A stretch of DNA of 64,000 bases from Escherichia phage Phi1, in sequence record EF437941, one strand, 5' to 3'. The notes under the pieces were generated by a model. The model was not told the DNA's origin. It did not search any database and saw only the letters and a program-made list of their open reading frames with translations. Positions 47,294-62,894 of this stretch are shown in pieces. A program made the position numbers and the translations under genes. Numbering within the stretch: the stretch's first letter is position 1; each line of letters begins with the position of its first letter.

Positions 47294-47322
47294 TTTGATT
47301 CTCCTTTGTTGTCGATGTGTGC

Positions 47323-47351
47323 ATTATGCTATACCATGATCCGGTTGTCAA
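47323..47351 (-). promoter_or_regulatory. early promoter
   Basis: TTGACA-N17-CATAAT. Confidence 0.5.
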
Positions 47352-47361
47352 CACCTAAAAA

Positions 47362-47387
47362 CGAAAAAGCCACCCTTTCGGATGGCT
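47362..47387 (-). terminator. rho-independent terminator
   Basis: AGCCATCCGAAAGGGTGGCT hairpin followed by T-run. Confidence 0.55.
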
Positions 47388-47402
47388 TTTGATTATATTT
47401 TA

Positions 47403-47700
47403 TTCACGTCCATTTGTATAGTAGTGTTTGAATCGACCGTAACCAGTTTCAATGGTCATTGTTCTTTGGTGAACAATAGCCCAATAACCGTTACAGGAAT
47501 ATTGCAGATACAAATCTTTACCTTTCATAAACTCATTAAAGATTGTTTCTGCCAGTCATAATAGACAACATCTTCAAGTTACCCATCCATGCGGGTCTTC
47601 CGATTCGGCAGTAATTGAACACGCGAAAGTATGAGGAAGCCAAATGGTTGTGTTAATGCTAGTTTTCTTTTACTTCTGGTATGTATCCCACTGTGACTAA
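47403..47700 (-). pseudogene. possible decayed gene / gene remnant
   Basis: three short minus-strand ORF fragments (14, about 40, and 42 codons) in different frames, no long ORF, no obvious RBS. Confidence 0.25.
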
Positions 47701-47702
47701 CA

Positions 47703-48423: not shown

Positions 48424-48431
48424 TATTTATA
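48424..48431 (-). promoter_or_regulatory. T4-type late promoter motif TATAAATA
   Basis: exact TATAAATA on minus strand about 35 nt upstream of the rI-like ATG. Confidence 0.45.
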
Positions 48432-58130: not shown

Positions 58131-58316
58131 TCAGAAATATGCAATATAGTTTGCCAGTCCTACAGAGTCATCATTCGGCATTGCTTTTACTGCCAGTTCA
58201 AACCCTGCTTCAACTTTCTGTTTAGCGGATTCTTCGTTATAACCCCAGATTACCAGAATAGCTACTACGTTTTCTTTGCTTACTGCTTTCAGTGCTTTAG
58301 TGATGCGACGTGCCAT
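58131..58316 (-). CDS. hypothetical protein
   Basis: 61-aa ORF. Confidence 0.45.
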   Translation of the reverse strand: MARRITKALKAVSKENVVAILVIWGYNEESAKQKVEAGFELAVKAMPNDDSVGLANYIAYF

Positions 58317-58362
58317 AATTTGATTCTCCGTTTAAGAAAGTGTGTTTCGTTTCGATGGGTGT

Positions 58363-58391
58363 ATTATGCTATAGGCCGGATCTGGTGTCAA
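58363..58391 (-). promoter_or_regulatory. early promoter
   Basis: TTGACA-N17-CATAAT. Confidence 0.5.
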
Positions 58392-58415
58392 CAACTTTTT
58401 TAAAAAAATTTTAGG

Positions 58416-58444
58416 CAATAAAAAAGCCACTCCGAAGAGTGGCT
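58416..58444 (-). terminator. rho-independent terminator
   Basis: AGCCACTCTTCGGAGTGGCT hairpin (UUCG loop) followed by T6. Confidence 0.6.
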
Positions 58445-58448
58445 TATA

Positions 58449-58590
58449 GGGAAGGTAGCGAATCTTCCTTGTCTCCAACCTGCTAGCGGCCTAGCAAGTG
58501 AATGCTTTAGCGTACCGGATCGCCCACATACGCTGTAATAAATGCGGCTAGGTGACGTCCAAATCATTCTAACCGCGCTGTCTTTAGTTC
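58449..58590 (-). ncRNA. candidate small structured RNA (untranslated region between late-promoter motif and terminator)
   Basis: no plausible ORF; two stable hairpins; TATAAATA motif at 58596..58603 upstream and terminator downstream. Confidence 0.25.
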
Positions 58591-58594
58591 ACTA

Positions 58595-58813
58595 TTATTT
58601 ATATCGCTTTCTCTCGCGACGTTTTTGATCTTCTTCCTTGATAGAGTTAAATGCATCAAAAAGACACATGACACTGATAATGAACATAACCGTATTTTCT
58701 ACGATATCCAACGGCTTCGCATCAGTACAGATCACCCAAACGGTAAGAAATGCAAATAAGGCAGAAGAGATCACAAGCATGATACTTGCTAAGATATAAA
58801 AAGTCATTTTCAT
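58595..58813 (-). CDS. small membrane protein
   Basis: 72 aa, two TM helices then basic tail. Confidence 0.45.
   Translation of the reverse strand: MKMTFYILASIMLVISSALFAFLTVWVICTDAKPLDIVENTVMFIISVMCLFDAFNSIKEEDQKRRERKRYK
58596..58603 (-). promoter_or_regulatory. T4-type late promoter motif TATAAATA
   Basis: exact TATAAATA on minus strand. Confidence 0.35.
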
Positions 58814-59316: not shown

Positions 59317-59559
59317 TTATAGATCACAGAGCCATCTTAAAGCACCACATAAAGCGAGCAGAATACTAGGTATAAACGAGATCAAAACAAGTTTGCAAAA
59401 ATCATCTAAGGTAACACCGGAATAGCTACCAACTGTAACAACACCGATCATAAGACACAGAAAGAAAACAAATGCAATCAGAAACAAAGTATTGCTAAAC
59501 AGTTTAGTGATCATTAGACACCCCACGACGGTCAATTTCAAAAACTTTTTTATCATCAA
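59317..59559 (-). CDS. small membrane protein
   Basis: 80 aa. Confidence 0.45.
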   Translation of the reverse strand: MMIKKFLKLTVVGCLMITKLFSNTLFLIAFVFFLCLMIGVVTVGSYSGVTLDDFCKLVLISFIPSILLALCGALRWLCDL

Positions 59560-59707
59560 CGAAGCATGTCACAACTGCCTCGTTGACTTCCGCAAATTGT
59601 TGTGTTACCCACTTAAGGTCAGATCGAAACAATGTTCTATTAATAACAAATGTTTTACCGCTCTTATCCTTACCCATAAATTTTGCTTTAACCATATCCA
59701 ATTCCAT
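59504..59707 (-). CDS. hypothetical protein
   Basis: 67-aa ORF with AAGGTGA RBS. Confidence 0.45.
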   Translation of the reverse strand: MELDMVKAKFMGKDKSGKTFVINRTLFRSDLKWVTQQFAEVNEAVVTCFVDDKKVFEIDRRGVSNDH

Positions 59708-60427: not shown

Positions 60428-60898
60428 TTACAGTTTGGTCGTCCACTCCAGGTCTAGATCTTCGACATATTCATGAGATCGGACAATCTCTAAATCGAAC
60501 TCTAGGTCAGTGCCAAATTTACGCGCACCAACATCATAAGAAAGCGTGATATGCGGTACATATTCAGGATAATCCCACGTCGCACCTAAAGCAGTTCCGA
60601 TATCGTGTCTGAATTGCATGTAGTCGCTTTCAAATGCCAACACAAGCGCATTAGTACCGGATTGAGTTTCAAACACTTTCAGATGGCATAGAGAGCCTAA
60701 AAACTTTTCACCCTCTTCTGGGATAAACGGAACATAGACACGAGAATATAAGATAGTGCTATGCAGTTTATCACGAGGAACGGCATTAGGCAGATCGTAG
60801 AACTCCTGCAATTTTTCAATGCGGTCTAGTGTATCCTCAGTGAATTTAACAGCCGCATATGTACCTTTAACGGATTCTCGAAACGGGGTCATAATCAA
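60428..60898 (-). CDS. 57B: 2H phosphoesterase, gp57B/Acb1-like (anti-CBASS cyclic-nucleotide phosphodiesterase candidate)
   Basis: 156 aa; two H-x-T/S-x motifs (HSTI, HITL) at the spacing of 2H phosphoesterases; immediately downstream of 57A-like and gene 1 as in T4. Confidence 0.65.
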   Translation of the reverse strand: MIMTPFRESVKGTYAAVKFTEDTLDRIEKLQEFYDLPNAVPRDKLHSTILYSRVYVPFIPEEGEKFLGSLCHLKVFETQSGTNALVLAFESDYMQFRHDIGTALGATWDYPEYVPHITLSYDVGARKFGTDLEFDLEIVRSHEYVEDLDLEWTTKL

Positions 60899-61187: not shown

Positions 61188-61844
61188 TTAAATGTTCGCG
61201 AGAATCGCGCTTTCAAATTCTTCTAATGTGCCATTATTTATAATGATGGTTTCACCGTCAATAGGCAAAATTCCTTTTTCGGTGGAGTGAGTCGATACAA
61301 TACCAGTATCACGCTGAATATGCAACACCTTAGCACCCATAGAACGCATGAGAGCAATTTCAATAGGCTGACGCACATCAACCACTACAAAATACCCTTC
61401 TTCATTTTTGCGCTTCATAAACTCATCCACAAAGAGATTACACCAATAAAGCGGATTGATCAAGTTAACCATTATATCAGTACCGAGAGTGGTTAACATG
61501 AGACGAATAGACCAGACGTTATTATGTTTTTCGCCGATCTCATTAACGACCTTGTAAATCTCAGCCAGACGATCACAAGTAAAGGAGCTACCGCCATACT
61601 TCGAATCTAGCATAAGCAGACACTGAATAAACCACTTATGCGCGGTGTAGGTATCAATACCTAGATCGGCTTCTCTGTCACGCCCTAACCCGTCAAAGTC
61701 AAGATAAGTCAGACCTAAGTCTGGTTGACATTCGCATAAGATTTCTTTGATCGGTGCTGCCAGTTGATAACTGTGTCCATCAATGATTAACGCGGCAGTG
61801 TCTTTTCCTACTCGCTTTTTACCACAAAGTGCAATCAATTTCAT
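61188..61844 (-). CDS. 1: deoxynucleoside monophosphate kinase gp1
   Basis: 218 aa; P-loop GKKRVGKDT, TLGTD, VVVDVRQ; collinear with T4 gp1 as remembered. Confidence 0.85.
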   Translation of the reverse strand: MKLIALCGKKRVGKDTAALIIDGHSYQLAAPIKEILCECQPDLGLTYLDFDGLGRDREADLGIDTYTAHKWFIQCLLMLDSKYGGSSFTCDRLAEIYKVVNEIGEKHNNVWSIRLMLTTLGTDIMVNLINPLYWCNLFVDEFMKRKNEEGYFVVVDVRQPIEIALMRSMGAKVLHIQRDTGIVSTHSTEKGILPIDGETIIINNGTLEEFESAILANI

Positions 61845-62639: not shown

Positions 62640-62894
62640 ATGACAGAAGACATTTTGTTAAAACTCTATGATCGTTTGGATAACGAATTAGCAACATTGC
62701 GGGGTGAAGTTCTCTATTTGTCTAAATGCAATACAGATCTGCTTAAGCAGATTGCAGAAAGGGATGACCAAATAAAATCCCTTTCAGGTGCATTACGTGA
62801 TCGCGACAAGGCATTAGAGATTTTACAGCGTGTTACCAATAAGGAAGAATTAAAAGACTTCTTACATGGTTATGCTCATGCTATCGATCTATAA
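62640..62894 (+). CDS. hypothetical coiled-coil protein (plus strand)
   Basis: 84-aa ORF with GAGGA RBS 7 nt upstream; followed by strong bidirectional terminator. Confidence 0.5.
   Translation: MTEDILLKLYDRLDNELATLRGEVLYLSKCNTDLLKQIAERDDQIKSLSGALRDRDKALEILQRVTNKEELKDFLHGYAHAIDL

Follow-up and report, generated by a model that had tools for sequence, protein, structure and literature searches.

The locus and its operon

The window analysed here is the whole 64,000-nt stretch of Escherichia phage Phi1 DNA (EF437941). By megablast, its segment 58300-58900 matched 57 phage records at 95-100% identity, all of them from Krischvirus, the RB49-like T4-type coliphages. The stretch flagged in a previous sequence-only reading of this DNA is the gap between ORF118 and ORF117 in the annotations of RB49 and GEC-3S. 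Upstream on the same strand lie, in this order, gene 1, 57A, 57B, a terminator, an early promoter, ORF125 and a second early promoter (~59935-59907). The features of the locus are as follows.

60428-60898, minus strand: 57B homologue, with a Pfam Acb1 (anti-CBASS) domain
~59935-59907, minus strand: early promoter of the dmd operon, followed by seven small ORFs including dmd, with ORF118 last
59504-59707, minus strand: dmd, antitoxin mimic, in the same early gene block as 57B
58595-58813, minus strand: homologue of RB49 ORF118, 72 aa, with two predicted hydrophobic helices; last gene of the dmd early operon
58596-58603, minus strand: exact T4-type late-promoter motif TATAAATA, overlapping the last ORF118 codons TAT AAA TAA
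58363-58391, minus strand: sigma-70 early promoter of the downstream gene (TTGACA, 17 nt, CATAAT); promoter half of a PeSL cassette
58131-58316, minus strand: ORF117, 61 aa, DUF7421; the gene downstream, given for context and outside the element

No minus-strand terminator was found between the ~59935-59907 promoter and position 58445. It follows that the dmd early operon has its 3' end in the flagged region, a setting that had been missed before, and that this region is transcribed with or without a working late promoter. ORF118 itself ends in three tandem in-frame stops, TAA TAG TGA (58597-58589, minus strand), which are unchanged in 25/25 aligned copies; in RB49-type genomes a 62-codon open frame continues in phase beyond them. 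The presence of 57B, with its Acb1 domain, and of Dmd in one early block places the region in an anti-defence neighbourhood.

At 278 nt, the ORF118-ORF117 gap is long compared to the 67-110 nt of neighbouring promoter-bearing gaps. Part of it is a PeSL cassette of the type described for RB49 and phi1, i.e. a terminator hairpin, an AT-rich tract and a sigma-70 promoter (Arbiol et al. 2010, PMC2839356): a stem-loop terminator, an AT-rich tract and a sigma-70-like early promoter are all present within 58363-58445. That the terminator forms part of such a cassette had gone unnoticed in the sequence-only reading. Given the size of nearby gaps, this leaves about 150-170 nt for which the cassette does not account. 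The promoter part is similar to other PeSL copies of the window, whereas the 150-nt body (58446-58590) lies outside the repeated cassette and is unique in the genome. This body goes without mention in the PeSL papers, including PMC2839356, in which PeSL stem-loops are proposed as recombination targets. Another PeSL-like repeat is found inside 47294-47702, a 409-nt stretch with no minus-strand ORF of at least 45 aa and no plus-strand ORF of at least 110 aa. Three metagenome contigs (L003, L038 and L039) end about 200-250 nt past ORF118, inside the promoter cassette, as is expected if repeated PeSL sequence breaks assemblies.

The 61-aa DUF7421 gene with a similar promoter and leader (58131-58391, minus strand) has relatives of 75-80% amino acid identity in phage genomes of about 50 kb (IMG/VR; L006-L021), so that this cassette is common to very different phages. 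These ~50-kb phages have the gene together with a similar promoter and leader, and lack the element; the idea that the element is part of the DUF7421 cassette was rejected on these grounds.

Predicted structure of the minus-strand RNA

The minus-strand RNA begins with an unpaired 14-nt 5' stretch, followed by four hairpins and the terminator, i.e. five stem-loops. Only two hairpins had been recognised in the sequence-only reading; four (H1-H4) lie between the stop codon and the terminator. Listed from 5' to 3', the parts of the element are:

58577-58590, minus strand: unpaired 5' segment GAACUAAAGACAGC, with one variable position, 58582
58544-58576, minus strand: hairpin 1, of 8 bp, an internal loop, 4 bp and the loop UUGGAC; its sole change is one loop base
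58535-58543, minus strand: A/U-rich single-stranded linker AUUUAUUAC between hairpins 1 and 2
58509-58534, minus strand: hairpin 2, with a 7-bp lower stem bearing pair-preserving or compensatory changes and a hypervariable apex (58519-58527) with indels of 1-2 nt
58479-58498, minus strand: hairpin 3, of 8 bp with a GCCG loop, maybe extended to 58474-58502; stem invariant, one loop substitution
58473-58476, minus strand: unpaired GGAG, a RegB motif within the purine-rich stretch that links hairpins 3 and 4
58450-58468, minus strand: hairpin 4, of 5 bp with the 9-nt loop AUUCGCUAC
58416-58445, minus strand: intrinsic terminator, whose hairpin (58424-58445) has a 9-bp stem with 5 GC pairs, a UUCG loop and a T6 U-tract

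The strong terminator noted earlier is borne out as a 9-bp GC-rich UUCG hairpin with a U-tract at 58445-58424, and the corresponding terminator in RB49 has a TransTermHP confidence of 100. The same terminator, with a strong early promoter just downstream, was predicted for RB49 by Nolan et al. (2006). In phage FL15 (L025), the terminator loop, equivalent to 58433-58436, reads CGAA, versus TTCG in all other copies; this is an exact loop inversion, typical of template switching in a hairpin.

Two of the single-stranded segments suggest sites of processing. RegB, a nuclease of T4-type phages, cuts the GGAG motif and requires an unpaired GGA for cleavage (review, PMC3014915). We infer that RegB might cleave at GGAG 58473-58476, and that the linker AUUUAUUAC might serve as an RNase E site. 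Long-range pairing may also contribute to the fold. The hairpin-4 loop AUUCGCUAC is complementary to UAGUGAA at 58587-58593, and RNAalifold favours an alternative in which UAGUGAACU, directly 3' of the stop codon, is paired with the hairpin-4 loop region. Seven of the UAGUGAACU pairs fit within the loop, so that a pseudoknot could form; in this model, a long-range helix or pseudoknot between UAGUGAACU and the hairpin-4 loop, with both strands invariant, is possible.

With the terminator included (58419-58590), the folding z-score is -3.5 and 0/200 shuffled sequences fold as well. For the body without the terminator it is only -1.7, a level reached by 13/200 shuffles, and thermodynamic support is thus strong only when the terminator is included. 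The opposite strand yields a z-score of -0.7, and the folding energies are -44.3 kcal/mol for the minus strand versus -39.4 kcal/mol for the plus strand. The predicted RNA ends in a U-tail of at least 6, and GC content peaks at 52% over the element, compared to 33-40% around it.

Coding potential

The earlier view that about 150 nt carry no credible ORF holds: a coding frame conserved in relatives, which that reading had named as one possible refutation of its small-RNA proposal, was sought and none was found. A 55-aa frame starting with ATG (58400-58567) is cut to 15-24 aa in most relatives, and a 48-aa frame starting with TTG (58332-58478) varies from 11 to more than 43 aa among them. In hairpin 2 and in the T/A runs, relatives differ by indels of 1 or 2 nt, and these, together with premature stops, break every frame and rule out coding; as judged from the sequences compared, the stretch is non-coding. 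A tblastn search with the open frame gave no intact homologue elsewhere, and a gene remnant was rejected on this basis.

A small protein gene in either the ATG or the TTG frame is scarcely credible. Open frames are present and some pipelines call them, but in most relatives indels or stops reduce them to 11-24 aa, they run through the terminator and the promoter, they have no Shine-Dalgarno sequence at a proper distance, and they have no homologues beyond the same DNA. GenBank annotators disagree on the matter, with three different ORFs or none over the element. Records PQ351811, PP400778 and PP418985 (L024, L025 and L027) carry three "hypothetical protein" CDS in differing frames and strands, and most other records carry none.

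Conservation and covariation in relatives

Copies of the element were gathered from 15 GenBank genomes, 2 IMG/VR contigs, 8 contigs retrieved via diverged ORF118 proteins (81-90% identity) and 3 retrieved by a metagenome DNA-pattern scan. When Dmd was used to look for distant loci in IMG/VR, nothing beyond the same two contigs came up. In every copy collected the element lies downstream of ORF118, and it is kept downstream of every diverged ORF118 homologue recovered (78-90% amino acid identity). It occurs once in each of 57 Krischvirus-like phage records, at 96-100% identity. Contig OQVL01013596.1 (L046, 1-50) was left out: from a point within hairpin 4 onwards its sequence is no longer that of the phage but reads as a bacterial uppS-like frame, and it is most likely a chimeric assembly.

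Within the 25-sequence alignment, 15/150 columns vary outside the hairpin-2 apex, as against 18/57 at the ORF118 end (p = 4e-4 relative to the body) and 24/79 in the promoter part (p = 2e-4 relative to the body), so that across these 25 copies the body is about 3-fold less variable than either flank. The hairpin-2 apex itself varies in 7/9 columns. Low variability starts exactly at TATAAATA, with only 1/27 columns varying from 58603 to 58577. Nucleotide diversity is 0.009-0.017 in the element versus 0.10-0.18 in ORF118.

Stem positions are paired in 99.9% of alignment cells. The lower-stem pair 71-94 of hairpin 2 (alignment A2) occurs as GC in 15 copies, as GU in 1 and as AU in 2, and the aligned sequences read as a stepwise change from G-C via G-U to A-U with pairing kept. 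Three other hairpin-2 pairs, two in the lower stem and one near the apex, show one-sided changes to G-U, A-U or G-C, and hairpin 4 shows one change from A-U to G-U; the remaining substitutions fall in loops or linkers only. Every stem substitution thus preserves pairing on the transcribed strand, and the covariation score was reached by 4/500 shuffles. The stem changes would be mismatches if read on the plus strand, which makes the transcribed strand the likely source of the signal. A true double change is present in one pair only, and hairpins 1, 3 and 4, which lack stem variation apart from the one-sided change in hairpin 4, are neither supported nor refuted by covariation.

These figures are to be read in the light of the close relationship of all relatives, whose mean column identity is 97%. 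The locus is a recombination mosaic with other blocks of 100% identity, and the downstream gene is as invariant as the element, so that low variation could reflect recent shared ancestry rather than selection. Changes in quasi-palindromes can also arise by template switching at the DNA level, as in the terminator loop of phage FL15.

Relation to known RNAs and to phage T4

Failure to fit a tRNA cloverleaf, as reported from the sequence, was confirmed: ARAGORN found no tRNA or tmRNA gene in the 64-kb window, and no match to an Rfam family of the tRNA clan was obtained even at E-values up to 10. A tRNA or tRNA-like gene was rejected accordingly; RB49 has been published as lacking tRNA genes. None of the Rfam 15 families reached its gathering threshold anywhere in the window. 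The best sub-threshold matches, to EF3314_EF3315 (RF02634; 23.9 bits, threshold 100) and ColE1 RNAI (RF00106; 22.8 bits, threshold 47), are anchored on the generic terminator hairpin. Like the element, both the Enterococcus EF3314_EF3315 RNA and ColE1 RNAI consist of consecutive hairpins ending in a terminator, but with scores so far under the thresholds the element falls outside both families.

Copies in hosts or plasmids were also sought. In E. coli genomes and plasmids, matches were confined to the 24 nt of the terminator hairpin, and 185,579 genomes of bacteria and archaea gave none in exact-pattern scans; an origin from host or plasmid was rejected for these reasons. Among other phages, blastn at E-values up to 10 returned Krischvirus only, plus one chance match of 19 nt, and no second copy in the genome was detected by blastn. 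A covariance model of the element gave a match of 14.8 bits at 62641-62784 (plus strand), also present at the same place in L047; in view of its weak score and its position inside an 84-aa plus-strand ORF, it was judged to be due to chance and not a paralogue. The element contains no repeats or iterons. Perfect complements of at least 12 nt are absent from the 64-kb window, the best being of 10-11 nt, as expected by chance. The searchable literature yielded no transcriptome of RB49 or any other Krischvirus. The element is thus found only in Krischvirus, is single-copy and unannotated, and belongs to no known family.

A T4 equivalent carrying tRNAs and small RNAs had been invoked for this neighbourhood. 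The comparison stands as synteny, in that T4 has the order 57A-57B-ipI-tRNAs-rnaD-rnaC and in Phi1 57B is found about 1.9 kb upstream of the element, but it does not extend to any relation in sequence or structure to rnaC, rnaD or tRNAs. Alignment to T4 rnaC and rnaD gave scattered identities (21/195 invariant columns) and no shared helices, and homology was rejected. The likeness to these species 1 and 2 stable RNAs is of a general kind: they and the candidate RNA are small and structured, belong to T4-type phages, are of similar size (119-139 nt in T4) and lie in the same early block downstream of 57A-57B. The T4 RNAs, however, arise by excision from the precursor of a tRNA cluster, and the 3' arm of rnaC is tRNA-like, whereas the 3' end of the element is set by a terminator rather than by processing and Krischvirus has no tRNA genes.

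The late-promoter motif

The exact late-promoter motif described on the minus strand, TATAAATA, was found at 58596-58603 as claimed. By sequence, it agrees with the published rule for T4-type late promoters, whose essential element is TATAAATA at -13 to -6; applied here, this rule places the start at G 58590 and predicts an RNA of 170 nt. The motif is unchanged in 25/25 aligned copies, and its bases also encode Tyr-Lys-stop of ORF118. In the 64-kb window it occurs 3 times, versus 5.9 expected, and hence without excess over chance. Nolan et al. (2006) predicted 17 late promoters in RB49 with an HMM; the site at 58596-58603 is not one of them, but the site at 48424 is. This latter copy (48424-48431, minus strand) is intergenic, and 35 nt downstream of it begins a 100-aa ORF whose start resembles a signal peptide; the third copy (61235-61242, minus strand) is inside gene 1, about 75 nt upstream of 57A.

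In one natural variant from a metagenome, MAVA01000028.1 (L045, 3331-3350), an insertion of 2 nt in an A-run and a deletion of 14 nt remove TATAAATA and two of the stops, leaving only the third, TGA. The C-terminus of ORF118 is rewritten in this variant, and the element is intact.

The proposal of a small non-coding RNA can therefore be retained in part. The stretch is non-coding, structured and conserved beyond its flanks, but its framing by a late promoter as a discrete transcript is unproven, the 8-mer being at chance frequency, unlisted among predicted promoters and deleted in one variant. An independent late transcript is possible, if somewhat doubtful, and the observations do not require it.

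Interpretation

Structure on the transcribed strand combined with conservation beyond the flanks makes an RNA-level element the best reading. We propose, with moderate confidence, that 58420-58590 (minus strand, ~170 nt) is a Krischvirus-specific, non-coding, structured 3' tail of the dmd operon, and a small-RNA candidate. As the untranslated 3' end of the operon that starts at the ~59935 promoter, the element would be transcribed early, and the three tandem stops would keep ribosomes off the structured tail. The folded tail would then work at the RNA level, most simply by giving the operon transcript a 3' end that resists nucleases and so makes it more stable. In addition, the tail probably gives rise to a discrete and stable small RNA, either through cleavage in the AUUUAUUAC linker or at the unpaired GGAG or, alternatively, through late initiation at G 58590 from TATAAATA.

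The last of these routes could also be the main purpose of the element, which would then be an independent, trans-acting late small RNA of about 170 nt, transcribed by the gp55 polymerase from ~58590 via TATAAATA to the terminator. We regard this as an unlikely but serious alternative. The exact consensus at the essential -13 to -6 element speaks for it, as do the invariance that begins at TATAAATA, the position of the motif copies in the window, each of the three being on the transcribed strand and preceding some feature, the z-score of -3.5 of a predicted RNA whose 5' end is unpaired and which closes with six or more U, and the nearby anti-defence genes for Acb1/57B and Dmd. It is weakened by the number of motif copies (3 versus 5.9 expected), the omission of the site from the 17 predicted RB49 late promoters, the deletion of the motif in MAVA01000028.1 next to an intact element, the double duty of its bases as Tyr-Lys-stop of ORF118, and the lack of extended complementarity elsewhere in the window and of homology to known small RNAs. 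Its extension to a regulatory or anti-defence small RNA of about 170 nt, encoded by the phage at the dmd-operon 3' end and/or from the late promoter and acting in trans on host RNA or protein, is distinctly improbable. A trans-acting or anti-defence role would be attractive, because 57B has an Acb1 domain and dmd encodes an antitoxin mimic.

The stretch could otherwise be a neutral leftover, such as a decayed gene or an old junction from PeSL shuffling, whose conservation stems from close kinship and whose hairpins are due to chance or to quasi-palindromes in the DNA. The mosaic locus with its other perfectly identical blocks, a body folding energy only marginally below that of shuffles, and the 62-codon frame in phase past the stops in RB49-type genomes all agree with such an origin, and the G-run and C-run of hairpin 2 resemble PeSL stem-loops, within whose loops recombination is documented. 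We still consider it unlikely, since the density of variable sites is 3-fold below that of both immediate flanks in the same genomes, substitutions avoid stems or keep pairing in a strand-specific manner, and the element is kept in every relative of a compact genome with gaps of 67-110 nt; there is, moreover, no intact homologous gene and no repeat in the genome. Inverted repeats acting as DNA, be it in protein binding, as a recombination hot spot or as a replication site, are very unlikely. Hairpin 3 is a near-perfect inverted repeat of 8 bp, the hairpin-2 apex is a hot spot of mutations and indels, and PeSL stem-loops have been proposed as recombination targets; yet five invariant G-U stem pairs would be A-C mismatches on the other strand, the one-sided changes, including those to G-U, fit a minus-strand RNA and not a DNA duplex site, and no repeats, iterons or internal promoter-like site are present.

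Comparison with other small RNAs and implications

The element as preferred here, a structured 3'-UTR or candidate small RNA, is of a familiar kind. Bacterial small RNAs derived from 3'-UTRs are either transcribed from their own promoter inside the upstream gene, such as DapZ and MicL, or released by RNase E, such as CpxQ and SroC. The element resembles this class in its location at an operon end and the common intrinsic terminator, the candidate promoter overlapping the upstream coding end, the A/U-rich single-stranded linker beside hairpins, the U-tail of at least 6 and a predicted size of about 115-170 nt. Differences are that the candidate promoter is of the phage late type rather than a host promoter, that four hairpins make for more structure than usual, and that no conserved seed with a target was found in the 64-kb window.

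To our knowledge, no antitermination system like that of lambdoid phages operates in T4-type late transcription. Leader RNAs of lambdoid late promoters, namely lambda 6S RNA and StxS (PMC7547250), offer another parallel. In these, as in the late-transcript model of the element, transcription from a late promoter meets a strong terminator within about 170-200 nt and leaves a small RNA as by-product or regulator. Unlike them, the element has a terminator that also closes an upstream early operon, and the sequences are unrelated.

If the element merely stabilises the 3' end of the dmd transcript, it represents ordinary biology, and the benefit lies chiefly in better annotation; the spurious "hypothetical protein" calls over the stretch in several GenBank Krischvirus records are to be removed. 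According to a 2010 review, T4 had until then no functionally characterised riboswitch or trans-acting small RNA, and related genomes might yield candidates (PMC3014915). Should the element prove to be a trans-acting small RNA, it would be the first such RNA in a T4-type phage, and the hypervariable hairpin-2 apex, instead of marking a mutational hot spot, would be the product of diversifying selection during an arms race. As a candidate of this kind the element is well delimited: its coordinates are exact, a structure model and natural variants are at hand, and the coliphage that carries it can be cultivated.
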